Assembly: GCA_054600435.1 (NCBI GenBank)
Contig: BAAIJX010000003.1
Span: forward strand, 1-64,000
Reading direction: 5' to 3'
DNA length: 64,000 nt
Origin: Neophaeotheca triangularis
Lineage: Eukaryota
Shown here in pieces: positions 1-22,797 of the stretch. Every line of letters starts with the position of its first letter. Positions within the stretch are counted from its first letter, which is position 1. Made by a program: the position numbers and the translations under genes. The notes beneath the pieces are model-generated. The model searched no databases and was not told where the DNA came from. It was given only the letters and a program-made list of their open reading frames with translations.

Positions 1-120
1 ACCCTAACCCTAACCCTAACCCTAACCCTAACCCTAACCCTAACCCTAACCCTAACCCTAACCCTAACCCTAACCCTAACCCTAACCCTAACCCTAACCC
101 TAACCCTAACCCTAACCCTA
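1..120 (+). repeat. Telomeric repeat (CCCTAA)n, chromosome end
   Basis: About 20 perfect CCCTAA units from base 1; this is the canonical TTAGGG telomere of filamentous ascomycetes. Confidence 0.99.
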
Positions 121-1379
121 TAGATTACTAGAGTAAGGAACACTAAAGAATCTATAGGATCCGAGCTTATCTACCTAGATAGTAGGCCTCTAAGTACTAA
201 CCTACTAAACATATGTCCTACCTATCTTAAGCTAGTATAGGTCTAGTAGCCTTCTACATTTGCCGATTTACGCGATTCTCTCGTAGAGAGCGCTAGCTAG
301 GACACCTTAACGTAGCCCTATAGACCTTATAATAGTATAAAGGTATAGGAAGTAGAGTATATATAGACTAGGGGAGACATATTAGCTGTCCGCGAATTCG
401 TATAGTACTTTAACTATCTTAGTATCGTCTTTAAACTATATAGTACTACCTCGTATAGAGAGAAGCTATGTCTTAGCCTTTATCGACATAAGTTTTAGGA
501 TATAGCTAGAGTTACTTATAGTGTATTTTGCGAAAGGAATTCTATTATAGGAAAGAAAGTCCTTAAGCTACCTATCTAATGTAGAAACTATCCTAGTAAG
601 GTAGTACTTAGTCGAAGAATTATCGCCCTCGCTACCTATTAGTGTAAACCTACTACCTATAGAATACCTACTACCTATAGAATCGAGGAGCTCTTAGTCT
701 AAGGAGGACCGAGGCCTATAGCGAGTAGTAGTATTAGAGCCTATATTACTAGGAGTCCTATATCGGAGAGGGCTATCTAGTAGAGTCTATTATAGCTTAT
801 ATAGGGACTAGAGCTAGAGTAGGGACTAGAGCTATAGAGCTCATAAAGGTATTATGGTACCTAGTATAACACATATATCGAGGCCTTACTCTCTAGTAAT
901 ATAGCTCGGGGTTCTATCGCTATAGGACCTCGAAGTATATATAGCGAACCCTCTAGTAATAGAAGGTCGTTATAGAACGAGAGCCTCTATACTACTCGTA
1001 AGCGCTACATGTCTTAGGGATTAAGGCTCGCTATATAGTTATGAATGTTAAGTCTCTAGGCTAGCTATAGGGGAAGAAAATCCTTTAGGGATAGTAATAG
1101 TAGGGGTCCTAGTAAGGAATCTATTAACTAATATACATAGTACTATACCCTTCTATTTTCCCCTATCGATAGTAAGCTAGGCTTCCTCTACTAGTCTATA
1201 TATATGTCCTTTATTAGCTTCTACCTTATCCTTATATACCTTTATCGTCTTCTCCTTCCCCTATTCGCTATATTAGAGCTTCTTAGCGAACTAGCCCATT
1301 ACTATGTTAAAGTCCTATAGGATCACTTCTATGTCTCCTTAGATACCTTATCTAGGTCAGATTTTACATCTATAGAGTG

Positions 1380-1917
1380 TCTCGTTAACTTTATACACTA
1401 TCTATCTATATAGTAGTCCTATAGTAGCGTATTTCGAAAGGGTCTTACTAGAGTTCTTGCGTTAGAGTATACATATAACTATAGGTATGTTCTCTAAGCT
1501 ACCCTAGGCTTTAATGTAGTTCTTATAGTATCCTATAAGGTTATCGCGCTACTTAGTACCCTCCTTATATATCTTCGCTACCTTTAGGTACTTTACTACT
1601 AGTGTCCTCTCGTCCTTAATGCCTTAAAAGGAGCGCTAGAGAAGGTATTCTCCTACTAAGTATACTATATCCTCTATAGTATCTATTAACTACTCGTATT
1701 ACTCTACTACATATTCGTATACTAATCTATCTACCTCTAGGTCTATGATATAGTTAAGAGCTTATAAATACTCTACCTAGCTATTTAGAACTTGTTTTAC
1801 CTATTTAAAGAGGCTATTACTAATAGCGCGTACTACTATAAGGTGAAACTTCTAGAGTACGCTGCCTACATTTATAGCTAATAGGAGTACTTCGTTTATA
1901 TCGCTAGATAGACTCAT
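1380..1917 (-). pseudogene. RIP-inactivated ORF of unknown type pointing toward the telomere (read 1917 to ~1380; may extend further)
   Basis: The minus frame from ATG at 1917 (MSLSSDINEVLLL...) is broken only by TAG/TAA stops, as expected from RIP of CAG/CAA/TGG; no TGA over about 180 codons. Confidence 0.5.
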
Positions 1918-1984
1918 ATTATTAGTACTAGTGGCGTTTGTAGCTCACTACGGTTAGCGTAGGGCGTACTCATGTCTCTAGTTA

Positions 1985-2445
1985 GTATAGTTAGTTATGA
2001 AGTTAAGGTTATTAATAGAGGTTATAGAGTTAGGGTCATTAGTAGAGGTTATAGAGTTAGTATTAGCTATAGAGGTTATAGAGTTAGTGTTAGTAGCTAA
2101 GGTTATAGAGTTAGTGTTATTAGTAGAGATGTTATAGGTAATAAAGGTAGTAAAGGTAGTAAAGGTAGTAAAGGTAGTAAAGGTAGTAGAGGTAGTAGAG
2201 GTAGTAGAGGGAGGTGTTATCTACTAATGTGTTATCTACGAATACATAAAGTGAAGATAAATGCTACTAGTATATAAAAGTAAAGGTAAATGCTATAATG
2301 AATAAAGTGAAGATGAATACTACTAGTATGTAAAAGTAAAGGTGAATACTATAATGTATAAAGTAAAGGTAAACGCTATAATGTGTATATAAAGGTAAAT
2401 ACTACTAGCTAATAAATACATAAAGTGAAGGTAAATATAGAAAGC
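1985..2445. repeat. Degenerate tandem arrays (AGAGGTTATAGAGTTAG-type; A(A/G)AGGTAGT 9-mer; AAAGTGAAGGTAAATGCTA-type)
   Basis: Directly visible units, e.g. aaaggtagt x5 followed by agaggtagt x3 at ~2143-2210. Confidence 0.8.
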
Positions 2446-2663
2446 GAATATAGATGTTCATATATAATAGGGAGTACTTATAGTAATAGTATAGGACATC
2501 CCTTACTTCCTATCTCTTACTTCTCATGTCTCGCTACTACATCCCTTACTCCTTATATCTCGTCGCTATTATTTATAGTAGCTTCCCTCTACCTAGTAAC
2601 TATATCTACTTTGTCTTTAGCGTGAATACTAGGTTTTTAATGCTAGATTTTCAACATACCTAT

Positions 2664-3017
2664 TATCGAGTAGCGTAAGTACTCGAGAAGCTAGGAGACT
2701 AGTTTTACTTAGGGAGGTATTATTTATAGTAGTTATAAACAATATAGTAGGATTAGGAATAAGGTATAGTAGGGAATTAGGGATTATTCGTAGTAGTTAC
2801 GAATAATGTAATAGGATTAGAAATCAGTTAAGTCTGTTATAGTAGATAGAGGCTACTTCAATTAGTCATAAATCATTCTATATATGTCTATCTAGATAGA
2901 TATCTAAGATATAAGTACTAGTGTTAGGGAAGGTATAAGTATATGAAGGGAGTAATGATAAAGTAAATACTATAAAACAAACACGTCTATTAATGTAGTA
3001 TAGGAGTCACTATAATA
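2664..3017 (-). mobile_element. Solo LTR (RIP-mutated), inverted copy of 25412-25768
   Basis: Reverse-complement match to 25412-25768 (e.g. tcgagtagcgtaagtactcgagaagc); termini are RIP-altered TGTCG...CGACA. Confidence 0.8.
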
Positions 3018-3104
3018 ATAGTAGTACTAGACGCTAGTAGTGTTAATGTAAGGAGTGTCCTATATAGCGCTTAGTATATAGATAGGTAAAGTGTAATAAT
3101 ACTA

Positions 3105-3200
3105 AAGTGCTAAGGTTAGAAGTACTAAGGTTAGAAGTACTAAGGTTAGAAGTACTAAGGTTAGAAGTGCTAAGGTTAGAAGTGCTAAGGTTAGAAGTAC
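3105..3200. repeat. 15-bp tandem repeat AAGT(A/G)CTAAGGTTAG x6
   Basis: Six consecutive near-identical units. Confidence 0.9.
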
Positions 3201-3629
3201 TACTACTTAGTAGATCTCCCTAGTTATAATACATCTCCCTAGTAGTGAAGGAAGAGAGTAGTCCCTAAAGTCGCTACTTAGCTATACTTATATTAAGAAC
3301 ACTACTTCTTTTCGAAAATCTATTTCTCGATAGTCTATAGTTTAAATGTCCTAAAATTGATTTTTGACTATAGAATTAATTCATAGTCTAAATTGTGAAA
3401 TTATAGGGAAGATCTAAGGTACTAGTAAATAGCAAATTGCTACCTCTTTCTAAATTAAACTGCCCCCTTAGTCAAAATTTGGCGCTAAAATCCTCACCTA
3501 TTTTAAATCAAATTGCCGCAATTTGGTCGTGGCATTATAGTTAGAGTAGGCTACATGTATCTCTTATCAGACTCTATAGCTCTAAACGGGAGACTCTATC
3601 TCGGCTGGCTCGGCTAGCGAGCCTTGAAA

Positions 3630-3656
3630 CGCCGATAAACATTTGATCGGCGACTA
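3630..3656 (+). promoter_or_regulatory. Candidate Zn2Cys6 binding site: inverted repeat CGCCGAT-N9-ATCGGCG containing the shared ATCGGCGACTA motif
   Basis: About 290 bp upstream of the PDO ATG; the same 11-mer recurs at 6781-6791 (minus) and 9157-9167. Confidence 0.55.
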
Positions 3657-3939
3657 TATGTATGTATCGTGAAGCCCGATGTTTCGGTAGCAACTCCGTT
3701 GATCAACACAATGTCAGCAGTCTAGAGCTATCCAGGCTTCGCTACCGTTAAGCATGAGGAGCAATGTGAAGATTACAAAACGCTGTGTCTGCTGCCCCTT
3801 AACGACTAGCGCTCACCAAGTTTTACTCATACTATTGATCAGCCTTATCCACATTACCACCATCATCATTATCATCACCCATTCACCAAACCGGAGCACA
3901 ACATCTATTACCCGACCTTGAAAATCCGCTATCGAAACC

Positions 3940-4899
3940 ATGTCACCGACAGCCACTATCGACAGCGTACACCACCCGGCAACGGGAACGTGGCAGTACC
4001 TCGTCGCCGACCCCAACACATACGACGCTGTCATCATCGACCCGGTCCTCGACTTCGACGTAGCCACGCAGACCATCACCACAGCAAATGCCGAAAACTT
4101 GGTCTCAACGATCAAAGCAAAGGGCTACAACATCGTTCGCATTCTCGAAACACACGCCCATGCAGACCACTTAACCGCATCCGCGTATCTCCAGCAAGTC
4201 CTGGGCAGCATTCAAGGCTCCAAGCCGCCCATCTGCATCGGCAAGCGCATCACCGAGGTCCAGAAGACCTTTGGAGAGAAGTACGGTGTGCCGGCCAGTG
4301 AACTAGAAAATGCCTTCGACCATCTCCTCGAAGACGACGAGACCTTTCAGATCGGAGACATCCAGGCGAAGGTGGTGCATCTCCCCGGCCACACGCCCGA
4401 CCACGTCGGCTACATGATCGGAGGTGAGTTTCCGCAAACAGCAACATTCACAAATCCATTGAATCACACCCACTGATACCACCCAACAGACAATATATTC
4501 TGCGGCGACTCCGTCTTCAACGCCGACCTCGGCGTCGCGCGCTGCGACTTCCCCGGCGGCAGCGCCAAAGCTCTCTATCAGTCCACCCGTAAACTGCTCA
4601 GCCTGCCAGACCACGTCAAGATCTGGACCGGTCACGATTACCCCTCGGCCACCCGTAAGGAACCCGTACCGTTCATGAGCGTCGCGGAGCAAAGAGAGCG
4701 CAACGGCTACCTTCAGGACGAGTTGACAGAGGAGGGTTTCTTGGAGAAGCGCACGCAACGCGACTCCAGCCTCAACGAGCCCAAACTGCTGCACCAGTCT
4801 TTGCAGGTCAACATCCGCGGCGGCCGCCTGTCCAAGCCGTCATCTGAAGGGCAGCGGTTCCTCACGCTTCCGTTGCTAGTTGGCTGTGCCAAGTGGTAG
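3940..4899 (+). CDS. Persulfide (sulfur) dioxygenase-like metallo-beta-lactamase, ETHE1/SdoA/Blh type; intron 4424-4489
   Basis: Motifs TWQYLVAD, IIDPVLD, ETHAHADH and PGHTPDH; after a GT..CTGAT..CAG intron come NIFCGDS, GVARCDFPGG, GHDY and QVNIRGG. Splicing joins ORFs 3940 and 4675 in frame. Confidence 0.9.
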
Positions 4900-5679
4900 G
4901 GTGTTTTGGGTGCGATTAGTGTTGCAGAAATGGTGTTGCGACTTTTTTTTTCCGGGACATGTGTCGGAGTTGTGGATAGATTTGTTACACGAAATGCTTT
5001 TGCTGAATATCTTTCTCCAATTTGATAGGTTCTCGGCTGAATTTGATGATGAATGAAGAGCGATCTCAATGGCCAACCCTTTTCGGCCTCGCAACCTAAT
5101 CCCAACTCTGACCCGTATCATATTACTATGGATCTATCGTTTGAGATACAATTTCTATTAAGCCCACGATATCAACTAGCAGTGTTTGCGTGTACAATAA
5201 TAACTCCTTTCTAGCAGATAATTGAGAAGTATTCTGCATTTATACTACAGGTGGGATAGATTTCAGGTGTTCGAGACGTTTGCATTCATAGCAAGGTTAC
5301 AGTTTGTACTCGCGAGTCTCTGTCAAGCCGAAGTACTACTTACTACATATAATTTTTGAGCCGCCATTTCTTAGCTAACAAGCATCTGCAATTTGGTGAT
5401 TATTGTCAATGTATTAAAGCGTACGTAGCTGGGCAAAACCGGAGGTAATCACAAAGACCGTTTCTCCCGAAAGATCAAGCCGACGGCATATGAAAGAGAC
5501 GGCGAACACACAAAAGGGGCAACGGAGGCCCTCGTACCAGGTCTATCTTGTTGAACGTACATGGAGAAAAAGAAAAGAAAACCGATATATCGAACCACCC
5601 TGATGTCCAGCACTAATAGTCCAACGCCCAAAAGAAAAAAGAAAAGGTGTGAAAAGGGAAAAAAGAGAAATCATTACAA

Positions 5680-6564
5680 TCATGCGAATAGACTCCCCAA
5701 TCGCTCTTTCCACCCAACAGGCTTGGGCATGGCTTGTTGCGTGACAACGCGCATGCCCGCGAGGAAGTCCGACTCACTCGACTTTGCGTGCTTGTTCGCT
5801 GCCGTACATTGCGCCAATGTGTCGCAAGGCAGGGCTTCGCCACTGACATGTCGCCTCTCCCACCAAACACGGGTGTCGCCCGGAAGCGCCAACACGCGCT
5901 GCATCGAAGTAAACGCATCGAGGAAGCTGACGGTGTCTTCTGACGCTCCTGGGGTGGAGTGGGTGTTGTTGACGCCCTCGTCGAGGATGTCCTCGGCCAG
6001 AGTTGCGATTGAATGAGCGCCGAAAAGGTCTTTGCCGACGAGGTACGCGCGGCGATGTGGCGAGCCGAAGCCGGGCATGTGCAAGGTCGTCAGGGAAAGC
6101 CAGCCCAGCGTCACGCTCTCGCCATCGCGAAGGCCAGCGCGGATGGTTGTTGAGAAGGTACTACCGGCGCCGTGCTTACGCTGCCACTGAACTTCCAAAC
6201 CAGAGACGGTGGCTTCATTGCATAGCTGCGGCGGCCATCCTTGATATATAGAAAACTGCATCCGGAGGTACCAGACAGCGGACAGACATTGCGAGCCAAA
6301 GACGTTTGTTTCGAGAATGTAGTCGACGACGTAGCTGTGTTGTTTGACCAGGCTTACGATGGCGTCGGCTGCTTTGGTCGCCATTGCAGCTTGGTCGACG
6401 CAGCGGTCACGGACGGGGTCGAGCACTATGCAGTGCCCGGTGGTGCGATCTGCTACAACGTACTGCCATGTTTGTGTTGATGGGGAGTAGATGTTGTGGA
6501 TGATTGGTGATGCGTCGAAAGCTGCTGTTGGGGGCGGTCCTGAGAAAGCAGGTGAAGCTGCCAT
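5680..6564 (-). CDS. Degenerate PDO-like metallo-beta-lactamase paralog lacking the metal ligands (pseudoenzyme)
   Basis: Intact 294-aa ORF from ATG 6564 (the ORF-track start is TTG). N-terminus TWQYVVAD...VLDPV...YILET matches the neighbouring PDO, but HAHADH is NVFGSQC, HTPDH is FGSPH, GDS is AHS and GHDY is absent. Confidence 0.8.
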   Translation of the reverse strand: MAASPAFSGPPPTAAFDASPIIHNIYSPSTQTWQYVVADRTTGHCIVLDPVRDRCVDQAAMATKAADAIVSLVKQHSYVVDYILETNVFGSQCLSAVWYLRMQFSIYQGWPPQLCNEATVSGLEVQWQRKHGAGSTFSTTIRAGLRDGESVTLGWLSLTTLHMPGFGSPHRRAYLVGKDLFGAHSIATLAEDILDEGVNNTHSTPGASEDTVSFLDAFTSMQRVLALPGDTRVWWERRHVSGEALPCDTLAQCTAANKHAKSSESDFLAGMRVVTQQAMPKPVGWKERLGSLFA

Positions 6565-6779
6565 TGTGGGGGAGAGACCGAGGATTGTTGATATTGCATG
6601 TAGCCAGCGTGAGATGTACAATTGTGTTTGCGAGTGCTGCCGGAGAACGTTCTGGCCAGGAGTTTCGAATGTGATAATAATACAGCAATAGCCTCAAACC
6701 AGCTGGATAAGAATGGAAGTCATGTCACTTTGCCTAAGGGTCAGAATGCCGCTTTCTTGCATTTCTTTAAATGCCGAAG

Positions 6780-6792
6780 GTAGTCGCCGATG
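6780..6792 (-). promoter_or_regulatory. Shared cluster promoter motif CATCGGCGACTAC
   Basis: About 220 bp upstream of the 6564 ATG; 13/13 identical to 9156-9168. Confidence 0.55.
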
Positions 6793-7154
6793 ATCCCTTG
6801 CTGGGGTTACGCAAGACACGACACAGCCGGATCGCTACATGTGATAGTGTCCGATCTTGGTACGGGAGCTTAAATTAGAAAACACTTTGGTGAGCAAAGG
6901 CTGACTTTGGGGAATTACTCTCTCACCGGTGAGATCGCTTTTGGATGTAGAAGCCGAGGATATCACCACAAGGAATGATTTGCACCAGCAAGAGGCAGGC
7001 ATTAGTTGATAGTGGAATTCTCTCACTGGTGCAGTCATCATTTGAATTTACTGAAGCCAATGACACTGCTATAGATAGCGACTCGCAACAACGAGAGACT
7101 AGCATCGAAGAATGCTTCTCTTACTCACACGGTCGCTTTTTGGATGTATTGAAG

Positions 7155-8969
7155 CTAATTTATCTCCCCAGCGAGATGCTGGACATCGAAGAAATTGTTC
7201 TGCATGTTATCCATCGAGAACAAGTCAAACCAGAGAGGATTGCTCGCACCCTCGCCATCGTCCATGGCGCTGTCCAGAAATGAACGAGCTTGCGAAGACG
7301 TGGCACCATCGTCACTGCCTGCAGAGAATACAGTTTCCGCCACAGTCTTCAGACAACGCACCGCGTTCTGGGCTAGAACCCATGTCTCTCCCATCCGCTG
7401 CAATGCGCCAAGCATCAAGACAACTCTATCACGGTGCTGTTGCAGACAATCGAGCCCGCATTGGTGTAAATGAATCGATCCCGCTGCGAGTTGGATGATG
7501 CAGCCTAGTACCAAGCCGCAAACGAAGAAAGGCGAATGTCGTTCCAATGGCCATGGTATGGTGGCAAGGTTCGACAAATTCTTGGAAGCGGCAATCGCTT
7601 TGATGGTATGATGTCTGGATGTCGGGGCTATTTGTGTGTATCCTCTGGCGCAGGCAATATCGTCTGCGGTCGGCACAGTATCAGGTAGTGCAGACCGCGG
7701 AAAGTGCAAAAATATGCTTGCAAATGAGATGAAGCAGCGAGCTTGGAACAGCATCAGGTCGACCTCACCAGACGGACCGACGACGTCTGTGAACAGAGGC
7801 GGTAGGTTGTATTCCCAGCTGGCTATTGCGTTGTCCAGAGATTGAATACTGTCCTGGCTTGCGTCACGTGTAGCAGCGAGGGCCGAGACTCGACCGGCAA
7901 TGCGGATTGCATCTATGCGGAAACACAGAGACGAAAAGTTATTACGCTGGTCTATGGAGAAGACCCTGTTCTCAAAGGCCCGGAGAGAGGGGGGATCGGG
8001 ATCACATTGGCCTTCTTCATACACGCTTTGCGCACACGGCAACAATGGAAGCGGATTTGCGCCGGCAGTTGCTAAGGTAGGATTCCGGTGGATCGCTGAG
8101 ATGTACACATCCACAGTGTATAGTTCCCACCAGGTTCTTCGGAGGCTTTCTTCAACCAATGCCGAGTTCGCCGCATTAGTACGGGCAAAAGACGGTTCGT
8201 TCATTCCCAGCTGAATGGCGATGTTGGCGGCACGTGTGATACACAACACAGCCTCCTTAGGTTGCTGGAGGGAGTGCAGAAATATGGCGTAAAGAACCAG
8301 CGCTTGAACACGATATGGCGTCTGCTCGTCGATACTGGACATGGCAGAATGTGTGGCACTTCGAAAGGCGACAGCGTCGGCCAAAGGCGTTGTAAAGTTA
8401 TGTCCGACAAGGCAGACCATCAGGTCGAGATAGTAAGGGTAATTTTGGGTATGGTAGAACGAGCTCGGTACCAGAAACGGATGAGCAGGGTAGAAGTTGG
8501 TATAAAAGAGAGCGACCAACCGCTCACGGTCGGCGGTGTTGAGTGACCAGGTATATGGGGCGGCTGGGGTCAGACATTGCAAAGATGGCAGGTTGTGGTG
8601 ATCGAGCGACTGCATTGTGTTGACGAGTGGTGAGGCCAGATTGGTGCGGACAGGGTCAATTGTGGTGGCGGCGGGTTGGCTGTCTACAACGTTTCCATTG
8701 TTGTTGCTGTTCCCGTTAAGATTGTCGTTATTGTTGTTATTGTCGCTCTCGTTGGCAGAGTGGTTTGTGTTTGTCGGCATTCCATTACGTTTGCTGCGGC
8801 GGGCACGACCTCGGCGCGAGGCCGTGTACACACACGTGAGGCCTTCCTGGACGCAACGGCGACATATAGGTGAGGAGCCATCGCATTTGAGGTGTTTGCG
8901 GCGGCATTCATCGCATGCCAGGGGTGCCGGGCGATGCGCGCCTGTGCGTGGCGACGATGCGCTGCTCAT
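7155..8969 (-). CDS. Zn(II)2Cys6 transcription factor with fungal-specific middle homology region
   Basis: ACDECRRKHLKCDGSSPICRRCVQEGLTC Zn cluster; FYPAHPFL and EESLRRTWWELY middle-region motifs; likely ATG at 8969. Confidence 0.93.
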   Translation of the reverse strand: MSSASSPRTGAHRPAPLACDECRRKHLKCDGSSPICRRCVQEGLTCVYTASRRGRARRSKRNGMPTNTNHSANESDNNNNNDNLNGNSNNNGNVVDSQPAATTIDPVRTNLASPLVNTMQSLDHHNLPSLQCLTPAAPYTWSLNTADRERLVALFYTNFYPAHPFLVPSSFYHTQNYPYYLDLMVCLVGHNFTTPLADAVAFRSATHSAMSSIDEQTPYRVQALVLYAIFLHSLQQPKEAVLCITRAANIAIQLGMNEPSFARTNAANSALVEESLRRTWWELYTVDVYISAIHRNPTLATAGANPLPLLPCAQSVYEEGQCDPDPPSLRAFENRVFSIDQRNNFSSLCFRIDAIRIAGRVSALAATRDASQDSIQSLDNAIASWEYNLPPLFTDVVGPSGEVDLMLFQARCFISFASIFLHFPRSALPDTVPTADDIACARGYTQIAPTSRHHTIKAIAASKNLSNLATIPWPLERHSPFFVCGLVLGCIIQLAAGSIHLHQCGLDCLQQHRDRVVLMLGALQRMGETWVLAQNAVRCLKTVAETVFSAGSDDGATSSQARSFLDSAMDDGEGASNPLWFDLFSMDNMQNNFFDVQHLAGEIN

Positions 8970-9155
8970 CGACTCTACTCTATTGTAAAAGTACCGTAAA
9001 CGGAGTGCTGATGTAATGAAAGTCCGGACACTGATAATGATGCGGATCGGAATGATCGGTAGGGTACTGGTAGATAGGGAGTGGTATAGTGTTTTGGACA
9101 GTATAGGCAAGTATGGGTCCTAGGGATACTGTAGTTTGCCCGCGGCGATTCCCGC

Positions 9156-9168
9156 CATCGGCGACTAC
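9156..9168 (+). promoter_or_regulatory. Shared cluster promoter motif CATCGGCGACTAC in the divergent TF/microprotein promoter
   Basis: Identical to the reverse complement of 6780-6792; an extra CGGCGA lies at 9143. Confidence 0.55.
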
Positions 9169-9376
9169 TTCTGAGTTCAAATTCATCAGGAGACGCTCGA
9201 ACCACAGTGCGAGTAGAATGTGGCACGAGTAGAATGTGGTACGATCTCCCGATGAGACTTAATCTAGAGGTATTCGTCATCCGCATGGTCTGCAACCCCG
9301 TCAACATCAAGTTTTGTCCTCTACGTCCTTCGACCTCATCCAGCAACGACAACCACCCCATCAATCAACAGCAAGC

Positions 9377-9732
9377 ATGTGCAAGAAAGCAACATGTTCC
9401 GAGTGCGGTTAGTACCTACCTATATCCTCTCATCACTCGCACTGCTTTCGCCATCTCACCCCGCGTTACCTCAAGTCAATAACATAACCATGACCTGTAC
9501 TCACTCTGTTCTCGCAGGCAAGCCATCCTGGTGGGGATGTGGAAATGTATCCTCATCACCCTCTGCAAATCTGCCCGATTCAGCCGACGGCAGACAAACA
9601 ACTACTAACACCCTCCACCAGCACATCCCGAGCGTCATGGACTCGGTTCCCGAAAGTGACAGGTGTCAGTGCGGCCCCAAGGTTGAGGTGGACGGGAAAC
9701 AGTACCCTCGCAAAGCCGAAAAGGCAGACTGA
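9377..9732 (+). CDS. 56-aa Cys-rich microprotein; exons 9377-9407, 9518-9546, 9622-9732
   Basis: Introns GTTAGT..CAG (9408-9517) and GTATCC..CTAAC..CAG (9547-9621) splice to MCKKATCSECGKPSWWGCGNHIPSVMDSVPESDRCQCGPKVEVDGKQYPRKAEKAD*. Confidence 0.8.
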
Positions 9733-10324
9733 GAGCGGGTCTCGTGCCTTGAGAGTGAAATTGACGAGGTGATGATTACTATGTACAGGTACGGGTACGG
9801 TGCGTGTGTGATGTTGGCGTTGTTGCGAGCTTCTAGATTGCAAATCAAGTCTTTCGGAACATCTCACGTTGAGCAGCATCTCATTGGAACATCACGTTGA
9901 TGATTCACTTGAGCTACCGAGAACACTATATGCGAAGGCTTAATCTACATGTAGGTAGTGGCATGCTAAGACAGATTAATGTGCAATTCTTCGGTGTCGC
10001 ACTGGAACTAGTGTATGGTTACTCTACACCAGGTACTGTACCAGAGTCGCTAATGCTACCACATGTGGAAGCTTGACCCAGTGAAGCGGAGAATCTATTA
10101 TTTTGTAGTTCACTAGCATCTCACTACCACTCCCCACGATTGTAATGTGCGAGAGTCGCCGGTCCCACTAGAAACTCCATGTATTTCATCGCGCGCGCTC
10201 TGAGCCGCCACCCATAAAAATCTCGTAACATACGAATCGTCTTTCACAATATGCCCCAACGTCCGGACCCAAGCATTGCTCTCAAGGAAGAAAAAACCGA
10301 TTAAGCATGCATTGGTCTTATGGT

Positions 10325-11185
10325 CTAATTGGACAGCGCCTCCGCACTCAAACCCTCCTCCCGCTCCCCCGGCGAGATCAACATCGCAACAATCACCACC
10401 ATCTTCACCGCCGCAGAAATCATGATAGCATCTGGCGACCCGATCGCCTTTCGAGTGTAAGCCCCAGCAAAGCTCCCCGCAACTAGCGTAGTCAAGAACA
10501 GTGCGCGCCGATTCCTCGGTCTATTATGCCGGGCGAAAAGGTCCTCGTCTATGAGGAAATCCACCCAAGCCGCCGTCGCCATGGCAGTAGTGATCTCAGG
10601 AATCTTGAATGCCCTCGCAGCAGCAACCTGGGACCCCGACGCAAAAGCAAGCAGCGCCAGTGCAGCGCGAGCCCAAGCCCCCGACTGATGCGTTCCATGA
10701 ACGTATTGGATCCAGGCGGAGCCGGCGACCATAAGCGTCTGCGCGAGTGCTATCGCGACCTGCCACGCTCGCCGCTGCTTTTGGACGAATGTTCCCAGAT
10801 GCCCGGTGAACATTGCTCCGGCGAGGAAGGCTCCGAGGCTTACGCCTGTATTTGTGGCGTCGAAGAGGGTTCCTGCCTGGCCTGCCAGGGCGACGGCGAG
10901 GACAACGGTGTTTCCGGTCTGATTCGAGGCGAAGCAGTGGAAGTCTGGGTAAGAGATTGCGTCTTGGATGCCGATTGCGAAGGTCAGGAGGAGGAGTTGG
11001 GCTTCGACGAAGGTGTTGACGTGGAGGTCGACGAGCCAGTAGTTTTTGAAGCCATTCCCGGAGGACGGTGGCTGGTGTTTTCTTGGGTTTAATGTCGCTG
11101 GTTCGCAGTCGGGTTGTTGTAGTTTGTTTTGTTGATAGTCTTGCGGAACCTGCTGATATTTTTCATGTTGTGTCTTGTTGCTCAT
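10325..11185 (-). CDS. DUF1275/YoaK-family membrane protein
   Basis: GIQDAISY..FHCFASNQTGNTV and EITTAMAT motifs with about 6 hydrophobic segments; ATG at 11185 (the ORF-track start is TTG). Confidence 0.85.
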   Translation of the reverse strand: MSNKTQHEKYQQVPQDYQQNKLQQPDCEPATLNPRKHQPPSSGNGFKNYWLVDLHVNTFVEAQLLLLTFAIGIQDAISYPDFHCFASNQTGNTVVLAVALAGQAGTLFDATNTGVSLGAFLAGAMFTGHLGTFVQKQRRAWQVAIALAQTLMVAGSAWIQYVHGTHQSGAWARAALALLAFASGSQVAAARAFKIPEITTAMATAAWVDFLIDEDLFARHNRPRNRRALFLTTLVAGSFAGAYTRKAIGSPDAIMISAAVKMVVIVAMLISPGEREEGLSAEALSN

Positions 11186-11340
11186 GTTCGCTGTCAAGCT
11201 CGATGGTGCAGGTATTCACCCAGCCTGGAAGCGAACGGTTCACATCGCGAGTATATTACTACCCATGCTCGGGACTGCAAAGTCTAACTTCATGCAAGAG
11301 ACGATCATCTTTGACGAGCACGGTACGCCATCTGAGATCC

Positions 11341-11392
11341 CCGTTTTGACGCCGTTTTTGTCGCCGTTCTTAATCGCCGTTTTTGATCGCCG
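11341..11392. promoter_or_regulatory. Tandem (T)CGCCG array in the DUF1275/YeeE bidirectional promoter
   Basis: ccg-ttttga-cgccg-tttttg-tcgccg-ttcttaa-tcgccg-tttttga-tcgccg; the core is the reverse complement of CGGCGA in the shared motif. Confidence 0.45.
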
Positions 11393-11679
11393 AACTCTGC
11401 CTCGAAGCAACCATGGCCCTAAGCGGGACAAGCGAGACTCCATCACCACCCGGGGGCTGCCTCACGCCGACATTTGTAACGCTGAGTGATATGGTGACTA
11501 GGCGATGTCTTAACAAGGGGTTCTGCCCTGCCATGTGTTGTATAAAGTCAAAGCATTGCCACGTATTGGAAGGACTGTATTCATCAACGTCAATCACATC
11601 CCACAACGCATCGGGAAGCACAGAACCAACCAACTAAGAACCCTTCTACAAATCAACAACCGAGATCTCTTACCACATC

Positions 11680-12751
11680 ATGTTGTCCGACTCAGCCGCG
11701 ACAGCGATCACAGGCGCAGCATTTGGTGCGTCCCTGGCAGCATCAGGCGTCTACCTGCCATCCGTTATCATCGATCAGTTTCATCTGACGGACTTCCACA
11801 TGTTCCATGTGTTTGCAACAGCCATGGGATCGAGTGCGTAAGTGTGACCGGACACCCAACATCGAAAAGATTACCTCCAGAAGTTGAATGAAGCTAACTT
11901 GCATCCTCCCTCACAGAATCGCAATGCTCTTTCTCGACAAACTCAACATCGTCCAACGACCAGTCAAATCGAACTCCACGCTCGGATGGTCGTCGTATGA
12001 CGCAAACATCGCGGGTGGTATTTTGGTCGGCGTAGGAATGGCGTTGTCGGGCGCATGTCCCGGCACAGTCCTCGTGCAACTCGCCCAGGGGATCCCTTCT
12101 GCAAACGCCACTGCTCTGGGTGCACTTCTCGGCGCCGGGATTTATGTCCAGACACAAAATCGGCTGAAGAACATGTTCCGACGACAGGGTGCTGCGGAAC
12201 CGTCCACTCGCAATTTGATCATAGCCGAGGCGTTGCGCATCCCGGAAGTAGTGTTGTACCCCTTGTTCGGACTGGCGATCATGGCAGTACTGCGCTTCAC
12301 TGGAGCCAAAATTGGAAACTCTCTCGTGGCGCCTATCATCGGCGGTCTGCTCATCGGATCAGCACAAGCACTGTCACTGGTACTCACATCCAGTCCCCTC
12401 GGCGTGTCATCAGTATACGAGCACTTGAGCAGGCATATAGTCCAAGTCCTCGCAGGGAAATTGGGGAAGTCTGCCCTACCGTCCAAACCCATCATTTTCT
12501 CCTTGGGAGTCATCGCGGGCAGCTTTGCCTTGCTGCAACAAAAGCCCGGCACAAGCCTCGCCGTGTCTGACGCGGGTATTCCGGCCTGGCAGGCGTTTGT
12601 CGGAGGTACCGTTTTGGCGTTTGGTGCAAGATTGGGCGGAGGCTGCACTTCTGGACATGGTCTGTCGGGGCTCAGCGCAATGTCGTTTTCGAGTCTGATT
12701 ACCGTGGCTTGTATGTTCGGCGCTGGAATCTTGACGCGGACGTTGATGTGA
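11680..12751 (+). CDS. YeeE/YedE-family sulfur-compound (thiosulfate-type) transporter; intron 11838-11916
   Basis: Exon 1 MLSDSAATAITGAAFGASLAASGVY... splices in frame (GTAAGT..CTAAC..CAG) to the ORF with GILVGVGMALSGACPGT and FGARLGGGCTSGHG, the conserved Cys motifs of YeeE. Confidence 0.9.
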
Positions 12752-13551
12752 GTGGAGATGTCATGGTGGTGCGTTTGATCCATTCAATACCCGTAAGCGA
12801 TGCTGTAAATGTTAGCGTACATGGTTCACCTCTGAAACATTACAACTTTGGACCGCGTGTGGCGAGTATGGCAATCGCACATTTGGCGTAAGCCATACCT
12901 GCTGGAAGCCGGACAAAGCGGACTAGACATCAATCGCCAGTGCGAAGAAATCCAGATGAGCGGTTTGTACACTGGCATCGTTGGTATCGGTGTTGTGAAT
13001 TGTGAATTGTATATTGTGTATGGGTTGTAAGTTGTAGGTATACACACAAACCAGTTGTATATCAGGTTGGTATTCGGACTTGGTTTACAAGTAAAGGCTC
13101 GTAAGCGCCCCAGCGAGGAGTACATCGGATCGCGTCTGCAAGACACGGTCGACCTGCCTCGTGCAGACTCTCGTGGGCAACGTCGCAAGACAGCGGCGCA
13201 ACGGGGCGCTCGAGATTGCCGGCTCTGAGGACTGCATCCTTCCAATAGACTTTGAATATGGTTAAGGCGCTCCCGGAACAGTTCTAGAGTTCACCCAGCA
13301 CGCGGCGATCTGCGTCAGAGCGACCGAGCGGTCTTCGGTGGACATGCAATCAATGTGTGCGCGTAGGACAAGTCAATCAACACTGTAGACGGGCACGTGA
13401 ACAGTGCATTGTCATCAGCTATGTATAAAAGGATGGTAGTGCTTCAAGCATACAAATATTCTATTAACCCCAATCCTCTTCTCCCTTCCCTACCCTCACG
13501 CAGATTGGTTACCTCACGCATCTACCTTGTCAATCTTTGAAGTCCACTGAC

Positions 13552-14087
13552 ATGACTTCACGTACACCGATCAACAAAGGACCGATCAAGATGCCGGTGC
13601 CCTTCCGTGGAGGAGATGATCTATCGCCATCTCATTTGCATTTGCCCGACCACGAGGGGCCACCCCTGCAGGAGGTGGTGTGTGAAATACGAGAACTCGT
13701 CGCTCGAAGTGTCACAAACGGTGATGCTTGCATCAAGTCGCTGAACGAATGCGGCACGGGAACTGCGAACTGGAACCGGCAGATACAGTATTCGAGCAAC
13801 ACGCGTCCGACCAGACGCTACAACAAGAGTTGATCCCCACAACGAAGAAGCTCGTCAATGCGCGGGTCGCCTTACAGCAGGAAACAGCTATCTGCAACGC
13901 TCTCCGACAAGCAGTCGCGACCGAAAGAGACAAGACAAATGAGATGGCTATCCAATTGAGGATATATATAGAGGCAAACTTGGGCTTCGTAAAACTTGTC
14001 TCGGAGTTGAGCCAGGCGCTATGCAATCTCACCGCCCCCATCACAGTCGCAAGCAGAGGATCTAACACTTTAGATAGCACGTTCTAA
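13552..14087 (+). pseudogene. Possible frameshifted coiled-coil protein gene at the island edge
   Basis: TATAAAA at 13424; two overlapping ORFs (13552-13833 and 13728-14087), the second heptad-like; no obvious intron joins them. Confidence 0.3.
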
Positions 14088-15025
14088 GGAACTACTAGTT
14101 CTTCGCACTAGAAATGGTGGTATCTAGATAACACGGCGCATAGGAAACGGTGGGTTAAGGCTATTCTACTATGTCTCGACATCCTTAATAAGGTAATATG
14201 TCTCTCGTTTACCCTCTAGCTATAAGAGGTCGCTCTACTTCTAGAGGTTAATGAATTACTAGTAGTAAAGGTCTGACCTACTAATAAAGTAGACAATATT
14301 GTGAAGCTTACTAATTAGTCCCTTCTTATACTAGGTAAGGAGCTCTACTTTAGTAGTACTTTAATAGTTATTAACCTTCATCTTTAAAGGTATCTAGATC
14401 TAAGCTAAACATTATAGACTAATGATAAGGTTAAGAATATAGCTACTACAATAGATCTATTACTTATACTAGTTAAAAAAATGCTCTTTACTAAGTTGCT
14501 CTAGATAGGTCTAGTTATTAGATGTATTATTAGTTATAATATTACTAAGTTTAGTACTATAGAGGTTAAATTTAGCGAGGACCTCGCTAATAGTGTCTAT
14601 AATATTCACGCTAGTATAAGAGCCCTTCTACTATAGTATAGTAAGTAAGATAGTTATAGGCTTACTAGAGTTATTAGTAAAGTACATAATAACGTTAAGG
14701 AGTAAGAGCTTATTATTAGAGGTCTAGAGGTTAAAGGAGATATTGATTTTAGTAATAGAGCTACATAACTACTTAGTGACTTTACTAAGTACTTTGTTAT
14801 AGATCTTACCTATTATAGTATTAATAGTTTAGTGACTAAGTATAATAGGTCTAATATATAGATTAAGGTATAGAGTATATATTAGAGCCTTTATGATTCG
14901 AGTTTATTAAAGGAGATATTATTAGTAATAATCTAGTCATATAATAATGTCTCGAATATTAGTAGATTAAAGGTAATAGTAGCTATATTATAAGTCTCTA
15001 TAACTATATCTATACTATTATAGAG

Positions 15026-15248
15026 TGTAAGACCGAGACTATAACTCGGTTAGGATCACGGTATAGCGAGGGCGGAACGTAATAATAGTAATAATAGTAA
15101 TAGTCCTTTAATATAGAAACTATTCGATAGTAGACAGGAGACTTCACTATTAGCTATCTCATATACTTTTATAGTATATATGCTTAGTACTCCTAAGCTA
15201 CTCTATAGCTTAGGCCGCTAATATCTTACTAGCGCTATGGTCATAACA
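15026..15248 (-). repeat. 3' LTR of the Gypsy element
   Basis: TGTAAGACCG...CATAACA; matches 22575-22797. Confidence 0.92.
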
Positions 15249-15965
15249 ATTGCCTCCCTCTCTAGTAGCTCGTCCTCGAGCTAGTACTCGTAAACATAGT
15301 TATGTAGGACCCTAGTATAGTACGTATGTTAGTATCCTCATTAAAAACCTTAGTAGTGTTTTCACTAAGGAAAAGAGTGATACTATATACTACTATTACA
15401 CTATTAGGTCCCTAGAGTGAATTTACCCTAAACCTAAGTTCGCTATAGCGAAGTGCGTTATCATCGCGATAAGCAGTATTAACGGCTATGTGGCGGTGAT
15501 CTAGTAGGGCGGTAATTACTAGTAGAGCCTTAGCGTGATTATGCTATAATTATATAGAGATGACCTACTAGCTACTTCTCTTTCGAAGACTTCCTCCTTT
15601 TAACCATAATAATAATAACAGTCTCTACTCCGTCGTAGTCCCTTTAGCGTACTAGTCTGCCTTTTAACAAGATAACCTTCTTTATTAGTAAGTAAACTTT
15701 AGTTCTTTATGTACGTACTACTATTAGTCTATATATAGTTCCTATTATTCTTTGACAATAAAACTAACCTTACCTAGTTTCCTATTATTACCTACTTCTA
15801 GTAACCTTTCGAAAACCTTACCTAGCGCGGTTTAATAAAAAGGCGCTCCTTATACCTCTAATACCTTCTTTCCTTCTTTATCGACCACTTTTTTTCGCGA
15901 TCTCGCTATCGCCCTTTTTTCGCTAGCTTTATTCACTACCTTCATTACTCTACTACTATTCTATC

Positions 15966-17312
15966 ATGTCTCTATATGTTAGTAAGTGTCTAAAGGCGCT
16001 AGTCGACTATAGTATTAGCGCTATAGCCGTTAATAGTAAGGGTGCCTTTACTATAGATAGAGCGATTATCGCTAAGGGAGTCTTTATAACTAAGGGCTAC
16101 TATCGGATCGATACTAGTAGTTTTATAGAGGAGGAGTTAAAGGATCTAGTTAACGAGTCAAAGTCTATTAAGAAGGATTTGAAGTTAGAGGGTATCGGTA
16201 CAAAGCGCGCTATAGCTATTAAGGGCGCGGGCTCGAAACGTAAGCATGCTATAGGTAATAATAGTAAGGAGAGTAAGTCTAATAAGGGCGCGCTAGCGTT
16301 CCGTCGCTTCGCTAACATTAATAAGGGTAAGGAGCTTACTCTTATCGATGTTAATCGCCCTCGTTATTCGCGCTACATTAAGGAGCTCTTAAGTAACATT
16401 CTCGAGGGGTCTATCGACTTTATCCCGCTATGTAAGATAGTGCCTTCTATGACTAGATCAGTATACAACACTTATTCTAACATGAAGTAATCATGCCTCG
16501 AGGTAAGCCTACTATAGCTCTATTATCATTACGAGTTTTCACTAATGTCTCTTTAGATCATTCCTAACCTCATGAGCTAGCGTAGTTACTATGTCTAGAT
16601 AAATCATGCCGCTATACTCTATTACGCTAATCGCGCTAGTAGTAGCGCTACTAGTTCGCTAATATACCTTAAGGTCTTAGAAGTTAACACTAAGGTCTCC
16701 TAGTACTTCTATAAGAACAACTACGCCGTTATTCTAATAGGGGGCCTTTATCGTTCTAGTCCTAATAACGATAAGATCTTAACTCTACACAACATAGTAT
16801 GCCTAATCATAGATTAAACTCGCGACTTCGCCATGATCGTTACCGATACTATCGAGAGGCTTATTACTATCTACTACGTAGAAATGTCTATACTTATTAG
16901 CGAGATGTCTAGCCGCTATCACGCCGCGCCTTCTTCTTTACCGATATGCGATATACCTAGTCTTAGTAAGTCGCCGCCTTACGATAAGACTATTAGTACG
17001 CTAGCGCTAGTAGTAGCTCCTAAGGTACTAGTAGTAGGGACTAAGGGTCTAGTTTAGAAGAGTAGTAGGGACGATGCTAGTATGCCGCTAGAGGTGTCTT
17101 CTAGTAGAAGTTCTTCTTCTTCGCTAGAGTCGGATAATAAGGAGGATAAGGCTCCGAAGAAGCCTTCTAGTCTCTTAGGCTTCCTTAGGATTCGCCGTAG
17201 GGACGACGTCGCTCTATTAGTAAGAGAGAATGTAGAGGAGTCTATTAGTACTAAAGATTAGCTAGAGGCTAATATTACTAAGGTTTCGAAGGAGTTAGAT
17301 ACTAGGGCTTAA
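15966..17312 (+). pseudogene. RIP-mutated antisense gene inside the Gypsy element; intron 16503-16556; Zn-cluster-like Cys motif
   Basis: ORF 15966 plus a GTAAGC..CTAAT..TAG intron continues in frame into ORF 16833 with only TAA/TAG stops. YxxY-x18-C-x10-YxxY-x6-C reverts to a six-Cys motif under G>A RIP. Confidence 0.65.
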
Positions 17313-20300
17313 GCGTTTATTAGATCATTTATGTACTCTCTATAAGCGCCGTTATCCTATCGCTAGCCTATCTATAGTAGCTATTAATTAAGAAGCTTAT
17401 GTACTATGTCCTTTTCCTATAGTTTTCTTCTTTTTCCCTAGCTATATATTCTCGACATTCTTTTTCTTTAGGCTTTATGTTTTCTTTCTATGCTTCTTTT
17501 TCGCGCTACTATAGGTCTACTAGTGTTACTTAAAGTCTATAATCGCTTCTTTTATGTTATTTAGATACTTCTCTTTCTCCTAGGTTCCCTCTTCTATTAG
17601 CTAATCTTTCTAAAGAACATAGTATGTCTTATTACTATTATCGTTAAGACCGGATGCCGTTATTTCGTCGACGACCTATTTATCGCCTCTATTGACTTCT
17701 CGCTCTACTAGTAGTATAAAGTCAGTATGTTAGTAGTATAGTTCGAGGAGAGAGACATGGAAGATGTTATAGATCTTTCTAAGGTATAGAGGTAGGGCTA
17801 ATTAGTATACTTGTTTTCAGACCCTTATTATGATTTAGAAGGGCCCTATATAACGCGAGGAGTACTTTTTTGTTAGTCTTAATGTTTTCAGGTTTTTCGC
17901 GGAAATAAGAACCTTATCGTCGATACTAAATACTATAAGATCGTGTTTTCAGTTATAGTATTCCGCCTACTTACTAATAGTATACCGAATGTTGTCCTCG
18001 ACGACTTCGCGAATTGCTTTCTAGTTTTTAGTTCTTTCTTAGAGGTTAGGGATTGTCAGTTCGCTACCTCCCTCTCTAACGATGTTATCCATAATACTAC
18101 TAGGCCGTTAGGGCTCTACCCTATAGATAGTAAAGAATAGCGACACTTTAGTCAATACGCTTATACTATTATTATAGGTAAATTCGGCCTATATAAGGTA
18201 ATAAGGCTAATCTGTCTATATAAAGTTAACAAAACATCATAGATACTATTCTATTATTTAGTTTTGCCTCTCTATCTACCTATCGGACTAAGAGTAGTAT
18301 GCTGTCGATAACTTATGCTTAGTTTTCTAATACTAAAGGAGCTCTATCTAAAATATAGAAGTGAATATACTACCTCTATTAGTTACAATCGAATTTAGCT
18401 TACCGAACTTAGTAAGAATTTCGTGCTCGAAAATATTAGCTAGTTAGTAGGCCCCTATCGCTTCATTAATAGGGATATACCTCGCGAACTTTAAGAAGCG
18501 GTTAATAATAACTAATATAGAATCGACTATTTCGCCCTTATATGTCTCTACGATAGGCAACTTAACTACTATGTCTATAGACTAATGCTTAAAGATCTCA
18601 TTAGTACCTAGAACTCTTAGCGATTATAATATGCTATAGGGCTAGTAGTAGCGCGACTTATGTCTTTAGTAGGTATTACACCTAAGGACATACTCTTCGA
18701 CATCCTTAGTCTACTTAGACTACCAAAACTCCTTATAGAAGATAGCTTTAGTCTTCCCTACTCCTAGGTGTCCTACTAATAGGTCCTCGTAGTAGTAGCT
18801 TAGTATAGTAGCCTATAGGCTTTCTACTAGTAGTACATACACCTTTCTATTAATCTTAAGAAGTCCTATAAAACTAACCGACTACATAGGCGTAGCGCTA
18901 TTAGTATCTCTATAGTACTATCCCTCGTCGATCTCTTTACGAATACGTTTAGTAAAGGGGTCTCCCTACTATATACATAACATATCCGCTCTAAGGTCAA
19001 TTCGGTCTACTACTATGTTAGGCTCTCTAATGTCTAGCTCGGTAATAGTAAGTATACCTAGCTACTTACCTATAGGGTCATAATAGGTTAGCGCTACTAT
19101 AGCGATAGAGCTAGTCAGGTTTAGTTCACCTCCCCCTTAGAGCGTTCGCTTAGTGTATACGGTATTATTACTCTAAAGCTTATTGTTTAGAGGACTAGTG
19201 TCTCTAGTAGCTATCGTGTAGCCTACTAGCGAGGTAGCTAATGCCTAGTAGTTTACTAGCGTAGCATACCCTAGCGACATAGATAGGATCTCTACTCTAT
19301 CTTTAGTAGCTATCGTGTAGCTACTCGCTAGAACTTTAGCGGCCTTATAGAGGCCTACTAGGGGAGCGAAAAGCCTAGTTAATGTAGGTAGTATTTCCGC
19401 CCTACTTAGTTCTCTATTAGCCTCTATGTTAGGACGGCGCGAGAGCCTATCTACTCTAGGGTTTAATTTACCTTTATAGTATATGATCTTGATGTCGTAT
19501 TACGATAGCTCTTCTACGGTATATGCTTAGTAGCCTAACAATTTCTTTATTAATAGGAAGTATTTCAGATTATTATGATCTATAAGTACCTAAACTTTAC
19601 TCTTAGCTAACAATATGTAGTGCTACTATTAGCGTATCGCCTCGACAATAGCGAGTAGTTCCTAATCATGTACTAGATATCGTAACTCTAGCCCTTTAAG
19701 CTTCTTAGAGTAGTATACGACCGGATGCTATAGCGTGTCTAAGTACTTCTATATAAGTATACCTCCTAATATGTATTCTAATATATCGGTCTTAAGGTAG
19801 GTCTCTAGTATAGTATTAAAGTGCTGTAGTACTAGTGCTAAAATGAAGCTATACTTTAACCTTTTAAAGGATTTTTAGGCATCTTTACCTAGTAGCTACT
19901 ATTTACTACTACTACACTATAGGTAGTCCATAAGGGGAGTAGTAATCTTTATATATCCCTCGATAAAGCAATAATAGAAATTCGCGAATCCTAGGAATAC
20001 TTAGAGTTCTTTTAAGGACTTTAGTATTAGCTAATCTTAGACTATAGCTACCTATAGGGGCTCTATCGCTACTCTAGTAGAGTTAATGACGAAACTAAGG
20101 AATCTAATCTCTTAGACTATGAACTCGCATTTCTCGAGACTAGTATACAGCTTAGTATTAGCGAGCTAATAGTAGACTGCTCAAATGTGTTCATAGTATT
20201 CTACTTCGGTATAGGAATAGATAAGAACGTCATCTATATATACTATGTAGTAGTGGTTAACTAGCTCTATAAGTACCTTATTAATAAAGGCCTAAAACGA

Positions 20301-22574: not shown

Positions 22575-22797
22575 TATAAGACCGAGACTATAACTTAGTT
22601 AGGATTACGGCATAGCGAGGGCGGAACATAATAATGGTAATAATAGTAATAGTCCTTTTATATAGAAACTATTTAATAGTAGATAGGAGACTTCACTATT
22701 AGCTATCTTATATACTTTCGTAGTATGTATACTTAGTACTCCCGAGCTACTCTATAGCTTAGGCCGCCGATGTCCTACTAGCGCTACGGTCGTGACA
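22575..22797 (-). repeat. 5' LTR of the Gypsy element
   Basis: T(G>A)TAAGACCG...CGTGACA followed by TSD TAGAG. Confidence 0.92.

Follow-up and report, generated by a model that had tools for sequence, protein, structure and literature searches.

A CGG-containing word repeated in the promoters of a putative sulfur-handling gene cluster of Neophaeotheca triangularis is a candidate operator of the resident zinc-cluster factor

The DNA analysed here, referred to as the window, consists of the 64,000 nucleotides at positions 1 to 64,000 of contig BAAIJX010000003.1 of Neophaeotheca triangularis (assembly GCA_054600435.1). It is fungal DNA and includes a 10.7-kb island (3400-14100; G+C content about 52%) with AT-rich DNA on both sides (1-3500 and about 14100-27000). 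From reading frames and Pfam profiles, six linked genes, g1 to g6, were recognized in the island (Table 1). They encode a sulfur/persulfide-dioxygenase-like protein of the metallo-beta-lactamase (MBL) fold, its diverged paralog, a Zn2Cys6 transcription factor (TF), a Cys-rich microprotein and two membrane proteins. The island also holds the copies of a short motif in the promoters of these genes. The motif, TCGG(C/G)GACT in its refined form, is very likely a functional, cluster-specific cis-element, judging from its distribution in related loci. We propose that it is the cis-word of a small conserved regulon and that it is most likely read by the resident factor, g3; we put the probability of this reading, in which the binding is a prediction, at about 0.68.

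Table 1. Genes and motif copies (window coordinates unless a related locus is named)
Feature	Position	Strand	Remarks
g1	3940..4899	+	exons 3940-4423 and 4490-4899, one intron; MBL-fold, sulfur/persulfide-dioxygenase-like
g2	5680..6564	-	diverged g1 paralog without metal-ligand motifs
g3 (TF)	7155..8969	-	Zn2Cys6 + Fungal_trans transcription factor, 604 aa
g4	9377..9732	+	Cys-rich microprotein, about 56 aa; two introns; exons about 9377-9407, 9518-9546, 9622-9732
g5	10325..11185	-	DUF1275 membrane protein; PF06912, 123.7 bits
g6	11680..12751	+	YeeE/YedE-type Sulf_transp membrane protein; one intron ending 11916, donor about 11835 or 11839
g7	13552-13833	+	93-aa open frame at island edge
Partial inverted copy, ATCGGCG on minus strand	3630..3636	-	pairs with site 1 as CGCCGAT-N9-ATCGGCG (3630-3652)
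Site 1, ATCGGCGACTA	3646..3656	+	284 bp upstream of g1 ATG (3940)
Weak second half-site, TTCGGCA	6772..6778	-	13 bp past CGG of site 2
Site 2, ATCGGCGACTA	6781..6791	-	217 bp upstream of g2 ATG (6564)
Extra unit, CGGCGATT	9143..9150	+	direct repeat, 16 bp upstream of CGG of site 3
Site 3, ATCGGCGACTA	9157..9167	+	divergent TF/g4 promoter; 188 bp to TF ATG (8969), 210 bp to g4 ATG (9377); faces g4
Array of four units, CGGCGT then CGGCGA x3	11349..11392	-	spacing 12, 13, 13 bp; A-rich spacers; divergent g5/g6 promoter; faces g5
g2 ortholog, L002	12557-13312		
g2 ortholog, L004	2845-3747		
g2 ortholog, L005	4581-5462		
g2 ortholog, L006	12124-13023		
g2 ortholog, L007	6270-7169		
g2 ortholog, L008	12110-13000		

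The exact 11-mer ATCGGCGACTA occurs three times in the window, and each copy faces a downstream gene (g1, g2 or g4) at 210-284 bp from the ATG. The expectation for this word was 0.04 copies in 64 kb, and three copies were reached in none of 100 dinucleotide shuffles. The first-pass annotation, made from the sequence alone, had reported these copies together with an inverted repeat around site 1, 13 identical bases shared by sites 2 and 3, and distances of about 190-290 bp to an ATG. Its coordinates and strands were exact and the 64 kb held no further copy. The inverted repeat is there, the shared 13-mer is CATCGGCGACTAC, and the measured distances agree (Table 1). Tandem or paired copies were found in most cluster promoters; those of the window form an inverted pair separated by nine nucleotides (N9), a direct pair at 16 bp and an array at 12-13 bp. 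Beside site 2, relatives have a half-site TTCGGCG or GTCGGCG at a variable distance.

To follow the word in relatives, 26 orthologs of the TF were aligned and metagenome contigs were scanned. A relative was encoded in 131 stretches, from which 80 loci (L001 and so on) were kept, and gene order in these loci was read by tblastn with the window proteins. The closest named homologs of g3 are from Cladosporium (C. allicinum, 85%; C. inversicolor, 62%; C. fusiforme, 57%). A Cladosporium clade (L001-L011, L026, L068 and L076), with a TF 54-91% identical to that of the window, has the order g6-g5-g4-TF-g2 as far as the contigs extend; no contig includes a g1 ortholog. In a second clade (L032, L033, L038, L039, L042, L048, L066 and L080), a TF-like gene of only about 30% identity, for which orthology was assumed from linkage, is separated by 3-5 kb from DUF1275, YeeE and a dioxygenase of 50-57% identity. 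The L080 dioxygenase has its closest named relative (72%) in the Lecanoromycete Stereocaulon virgatum, and the linkage therefore spans two classes of Pezizomycotina. At L012 (TF about 42% identical), DUF1275, dioxygenase and YeeE adjoin the TF, and L015 and L018 form a third group (TF 36-38%) with g4 downstream of the TF. The DNA-binding region of the TF was conserved across the clades.

Conservation of the motif in orthologous promoters, which had been put forward as a way of checking it, was found at two levels. The exact 11-mer is present in 3 of the 80 loci (L001, L002 and L003), at the aligned place upstream of g2 and within a conserved block of about 90 bp, and the core is present in 21 of 24 promoters of 11 loci. 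In the Cladosporium clade, the TF/g4 intergenic region has at least one core copy in every locus except L005 and L068. It contains two abutting CGGCGACT units in L001, L002, L003, L011, L026 and L076, CGGGGACT followed by CGGGGACC in L006 and L007, a mixed triple in L008, and three units plus one more in L009. The window sequence of this region can hardly be aligned with that of L002, L003 and L011, whose TFs are 79-85% identical, and the motif copies are at different places. The sequences thus show a word that was kept while its surroundings and position turned over, that is, conservation with turnover of the putative binding sites.

Arrays with a period of 8-13 bp were frequent in other cluster promoters as well. 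In the g5/g6 promoter of L002 and L005, arrays with A-rich spacers match the window array, and everted pairs, GTCCCCG...CGGGGAC, occur upstream of g2 in L006-L008. The second clade carries its copies about 200 bp upstream of YeeE, as CGGAGACT-CGGGGACC in L032, L038 and L039 and as CGGGGACT-CGGGGACC in L042 and L048. L080 has five abutting CGGGGACT units upstream of YeeE and a CGGCGAC triple upstream of the dioxygenase. The five units (10114-10153, minus strand), as opposed to two in L042 and L048, look like a microsatellite-like expansion of a putative binding site. The g1/g6 promoter of L012 has a run of TCGGGGTT-like units. In L015 and L018, CGGCGACC lies about 250-300 bp upstream of g4, and paired CGGCG(A/T) words lie 21 bp apart upstream of the TF.

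Fifty-eight sites gave the consensus T (39 of 58), CGG, C or G (26 and 27; A in 4), GAC and T (44 of 58), in which the core CGG(C/G)GAC is fixed by construction. There was no base preference outside TCGG(C/G)GACT over these sites, and the unit is therefore 8-9 bp long, usually arrayed, in place of the 11-13 bp given in the first-pass annotation. Several other copies of the 8-mer in the window were judged to be chance occurrences: one at 4503 in exon 2 of g1, where it encodes C-G-D-S; one at 10154 in the 3' intergenic DNA between g4 and g5, with no counterpart in L002; one at 16969 within AT-rich DNA; and two, at 44117 and 63538, inside long open frames. Remoter TF paralogs without cluster genes mostly have no or one CGGSGAC upstream, except L060/L061 (three) and L069 (two). 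Five loci with no cluster genes nearby (L034, L036, L052, L073 and L031) contain 4-8 copies of the 8-mer each, several of them between a Zn_clus ORF (open reading frame) and a Fungal_trans ORF of a TF paralog; in L034 the copies are at 8306-8768 and the two ORFs at 7069-8382 and 9749-11509.

The distribution of the word was evaluated statistically over non-redundant loci, in counts in which DNA outside the cluster intergenic regions includes coding DNA. The core as defined from the window alone, CGGCGACT, was counted in 10 non-redundant Cladosporium-clade loci other than the window; L001, L076 and L026, near-copies of L002, L003 and L011, and L010, with a TF fragment, were left out. It occurred 20 times in 16,948 bp of cluster intergenic DNA (9 of 10 loci) versus once in 72,664 bp elsewhere. 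Among 1120 8-mers of the same composition (mean 0.46, standard deviation 1.3) it ranked first, the best non-overlapping word reaching 6. With the refined 8-mer CGG[CG]GACT and 11 loci including the window, 37 copies were found in 20.8 kb of cluster intergenic DNA and 5 in 132.8 kb elsewhere, a 47-fold enrichment (binomial probability 3e-27). The latter figure bears out the rarity outside the cluster on which the earlier interpretation depended, within the scope of the window and related loci. The 21 of 24 promoter regions with this 8-mer, which were delimited by hand, compare with about 1.5% expected at the background rate. An unbiased scan of the 400 bp upstream of the TF, in which 3459 words were tested, placed TCGGCGAC first (7 of 11 loci; p = 7.7e-8). 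For the second clade and L012, the 8-mer occurred 8 times in 28.65 kb of cluster intergenic DNA versus twice in 56.8 kb (p = 3.6e-3); the loci counted were L012, L032, L039, L042, L066 and L080, without the near-copies L033, L038, L040 and L048.

Because the word recurs in the cluster promoters and is kept in the same promoters of relatives, the regulator of the cluster most likely docks on it. Zinc-cluster proteins contact CGG triplets. The best candidate for the reader is g3, since it is a zinc-cluster protein, the word contains CGG, gene and word are linked across clades, and the DNA-binding region is conserved. We infer binding by g3, the sign of regulation and the inducing signal as follows. 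The three exact 11-mers of the window would be the best copies of TCGG(C/G)GACT, which would mark the promoters of g1, g2 and the divergent TF/g4 pair and, as a looser CGGCGA array, that of the divergent g5/g6 pair. The zinc cluster of g3 would contact CGG, and the following (C/G)GACT would confer specificity. The spacing of the motif takes values of 8, 9, 12-13, 16 and 21-23 bp, and copy number and orientation (direct or everted) vary freely between species. This freedom suggests monomer-like binding: g3 may occupy the arrays as monomers or loosely coupled units and not as a rigid dimer of fixed spacing. It would switch the cluster on upon a sulfur-related signal, for example sulfide, persulfide, thiosulfate or sulfite, and would probably feed back on its own promoter or that of the microprotein. 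Autoregulation by g3 is possible and is inseparable from control of the divergent g4, because site 3 is in a promoter shared with g4 and faces g4.

The first-pass annotation had described the 11-mer as the operator of the resident TF, autoregulation included, and as independent evidence for a single regulon. Of the former claim there stands a non-random, conserved, CGG-containing cluster promoter element with a Zn2Cys6 gene linked to it in two classes, while the length of the unit had to be changed and autoregulation is ambiguous. As to the latter, the promoters of g1, g2 and TF/g4 do carry the word, and the candidate regulon is wider than had been claimed, as the DUF1275/YeeE promoter has its CGGCGA array too.

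Several observations weigh against binding of this word by g3 or against the strength of its statistics. In the TF/g4 region, the motif is missing from L005 and absent from L068, whose TF is 54% identical. L005 has three CTCGGG words at a 6-bp period in this region (about 2310-2340), which may be a decayed or variant array. The 8-mer is found nowhere in the clusters of L012 and L066. In the Lecanoromycete-like clade, the motif does not occur upstream of the TF-like gene itself at 5 of 6 non-redundant loci. Site 1 lies about 100 bp from the border of a multi-copy repeat, and no ortholog of its promoter was recovered. The variable spacing and orientation are unlike the fixed-spacing dimer sites of classical Zn2Cys6 proteins. 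As for the counts, the loci behind the 37-versus-5 and 21-of-24 results had also served to refine the length of the 8-mer and its C/G degeneracy, a refinement of which the CGGCGACT test is free; orthologous sites share ancestry and are not independent events; and the background was drawn from the window plus about 73 kb of DNA at related loci.

The window statistics belong to the same side. Because the word had been picked after looking, we also asked how often any 11-mer appears at least three times on both strands of 3400-14100, using 300 Markov shuffles per order. Some such triple was present in 6% (order 1) and 12% (order 3) of the shuffled islands; order-5 shuffles (54%) were set aside because they over-fit a 10.7-kb sequence. 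The island itself has a second triple 11-mer, CAAATGAGATG, at 7721, 13628 and 13936, from which it follows that the naive expectation was too optimistic. One of its copies is in the coding region of the TF and two, oppositely oriented, are in the g7 region, and the triple is probably due to chance. In view of the shuffles and this second triple, the significance within the window is moderate: taken alone, the window is suggestive and not decisive.

The word might be a real cis-element that is read by a factor encoded elsewhere, either another Zn2Cys6 protein or a member of another family, with g3 binding otherwise or acting indirectly. We regard this as unlikely. In its favour are the Lecanoromycete-like loci, where the TF-like gene is 3-5 kb from the motif-bearing genes and mostly has no motif of its own. 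The 8-mer clusters at the unrelated TF-paralog loci L034, L052 and L073 point the same way, since they suggest that other family members may use similar words. Such a distant reader fits less well with the fact that each of the 11 Cladosporium-clade loci, and the second clade too, keeps the TF linked to promoters with the motif, and a CGG, which zinc-cluster sites are expected to have, is part of the word. Among general sulfur or stress factors, none of the words of CYS3/MetR-type bZIP factors, of the stress response element (STRE) or of CreA is known to accommodate the C variant as well as the G variant.

Two further explanations appear much less probable. That the word acts on transcripts as an element of the 5' untranslated region (UTR) would agree with the uniform orientation, relative to the downstream gene, of the three window copies and the g5/g6 array. 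It is very unlikely, as both orientations occur in a single intergenic region of L002 (9620 on the plus strand versus 9836 and 9844 on the minus strand), and the g2 promoters of L006-L008 have everted pairs; the two together fit recognition of double-stranded DNA. Also, a 5' UTR covering the 190-290 bp up to the ATG would be long by fungal standards. Still harder to sustain is that the word recurs by chance or is a functionless leftover, be it of a mobile element or of the duplication behind g1 and g2. The shuffled islands and the second triple 11-mer speak for chance, and the paralogy of g1 and g2 and the repeat border near site 1 for a leftover. Against both stand the 47-fold enrichment over 11 loci, the first rank among 1120 words in loci not used for the definition, and the presence of the word in promoters of genes that are not paralogous (TF/g4 and g5/g6). 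A duplication remnant was ruled out as the source of sites 1 and 2, because the flanks of the window copies show no similarity past the 11-13 bp. In addition, with an identity of only about 30% between the proteins of g1 and g2, neutral promoter DNA would have decayed.

The regulators AflR (aflatoxin cluster) and Gal4 (GAL upstream activating sequence) resemble the proposed system: the regulator is encoded in the cluster, a short CGG/CG word is repeated in the co-clustered promoters, including a divergent one beside the regulator, and sites lie 150-300 bp from the ATG. They differ in that TCGG(C/G)GACT is not known as a site of such a regulator and forms a free-spaced array and not a palindrome of fixed spacing, in that the genes here are putative sulfur-handling genes and belong to neither a secondary-metabolite nor a sugar pathway, and in that binding here is a prediction. 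Hap1, AlcR, Rgt1 and Aro80 are alike in architecture, with direct tandem units (here with a period of 8-13 bp), variable copy number, and direct and everted pairs; the sequence of the half-site is another one here. By reading of its sequence, g3 has no obvious coiled-coil after the zinc cluster, in likeness to this type.

The genes themselves were assigned by profile. In g1, Pfam Lactamase_B (PF00753) scored 39.3 bits, and the motifs HAHADH, PGH, CGD and GHDY are all present, corresponding to the MBL-fold HxHxDH and the later His/Asp ligands; we take these to be the metal ligands by comparison with ETHE1. Among solved chains, g1 exon 1 comes closest to three of the MBL fold (9g8t, 4ysk and 4efz; E = 2e-30 to 2e-26), and human ETHE1 (4chl) is a weaker match (E = 1.6e-7). 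Against the NCBIfam Blh dioxygenase NF040641, the two exons scored 131.5 and 135.5 bits over profile positions 142-420, where the cut-off of this two-domain model is 625 bits. Like g1, g2 matches the dioxygenase half of the model. For g3, PF00172 (42.5 bits) and PF04082 (52 bits) were each over their cut-off. For g6, PF04143 gave 100.2 bits (cut-off 27), and because the TsuA equivalog scored only weakly (27.6 bits versus 400), no substrate was assigned.

A bacterial parallel lies in the BigR operon of Xylella and Agrobacterium. That operon places a sulfur dioxygenase of the Blh/ETHE1 type and a membrane transporter for sulfur compounds under a dedicated regulator, BigR. This repressor, a winged-helix protein, occupies the -10 region until cysteine oxidation releases it (PMC5823870). 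Blh is the sulfur transferase/dioxygenase of the operon. The cluster described here differs by its putative eukaryotic Zn2Cys6 regulator with upstream arrays, by the lack of the DUF442 sulfur-transferase domain in g1, and by a transporter of the YeeE type and not of the TauE type. The sulfur theme of the cluster, a putative sulfur dioxygenase with membrane proteins for sulfur compounds, rests on the family assignments and on this analogy.

The paralog g2 deserves attention as a candidate sensor. In all seven sequences compared (window and six orthologs), it lacks the metal-ligand motifs: HxHxDH is replaced by NVFGSQ in the window and by HA(S/T/A)(G/S)(S/P)Q in the six orthologs, PGH by PGF, and CGD by FGA. 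The orthologs are 55-82% identical to the window protein, and the gene lies directly downstream of the TF in L001, L002 and L004-L008. Thus g2 is likely to be a non-catalytic MBL-fold protein. In Gal3-Gal80-Gal4, a non-catalytic paralog of a pathway enzyme senses the ligand for a Zn2Cys6 factor. The likeness to that system is that g2 is a conserved enzyme paralog that has lost its metal ligands, adjoins the TF and carries the motif. The difference is that the cluster shows no Gal80-like partner and that a ligand of g2 is conjecture. The cluster could then be a eukaryotic counterpart of bacterial persulfide-sensing operons, in which g2, as a Gal3-like sensor of, for example, glutathione persulfide, would contact the regulatory domain of the TF, and the TF would activate the TCGG(C/G)GACT arrays of the dioxygenase, YeeE/DUF1275 and the microprotein. 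We consider this rather improbable. Its only direct hint, a weak one, is an in-silico complex prediction of TF residues 130-604 with g2, which passed with weak support at 0.59 (runs 0.00, 0.68 and 0.59; best of three controls, 0.02). In the calibration of the tool, 51 of 78 solved complexes and 2 of 108 mismatched pairs attained the mark for passing; passes with a score of 0.60 or below came from only 5 of these 78 solved complexes, and from all 4 of the mismatches that passed. Agreement of contacts between runs was at least 0%, and the partner had a pLDDT (predicted local distance difference test) of at least 66.

Sensing and regulation of sulfide, persulfide and thiosulfate handling have so far been poorly described in fungi. 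Full-text searches of the literature returned no paper on a fungal persulfide-dioxygenase/YeeE/DUF1275 cluster or its regulator, and the 8-mer as text gave primer-like matches only. Apparently new are the word itself, the regulon and how widely it extends, whereas a cluster regulator with CGG-type sites is of a well-known, ordinary kind. The motif makes the neighbouring genes a testable regulon and offers a probe for electrophoretic mobility shift assays (EMSA), DNA affinity purification sequencing (DAP-seq) and reporters. With it as a search word, any Pezizomycotina genome could be screened for unlinked regulon members. The word, conserved over two fungal classes while its copies turned over rapidly, would also give a clean example of binding-site turnover under selection.

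Some observations concern the edges of the island and its smallest genes. At 3400-3545, many contigs of run X1 and several of run X2 stack up, with C>T and G>A differences, and a single contig carries the island from 3515 onward. This marks the repeat border near site 1 as multi-copy and similar to the products of repeat-induced point mutation (RIP). Of the interval 3400-13399, run X1, a possible source of the window, covered the whole; run X2 covered the repeat (3400-3545), about 50 bases near 10900, and 12051-13399; and run X3 covered none. No additional ortholog of site 1 was gained from the read runs over this interval, of which the uncovered parts prove nothing. At the other edge, g7 had no Pfam match and no tblastn match in the 80 loci, and is therefore probably outside the conserved cluster. 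The microprotein g4 matched nothing in Pfam or Atlas. Its exon 3 is conserved in 16 loci, and the gene is linked to the TF in three clades. The two genes are divergent in L039 and throughout the Cladosporium clade, whereas g4 follows the TF in tandem in L014, L015 and L018.

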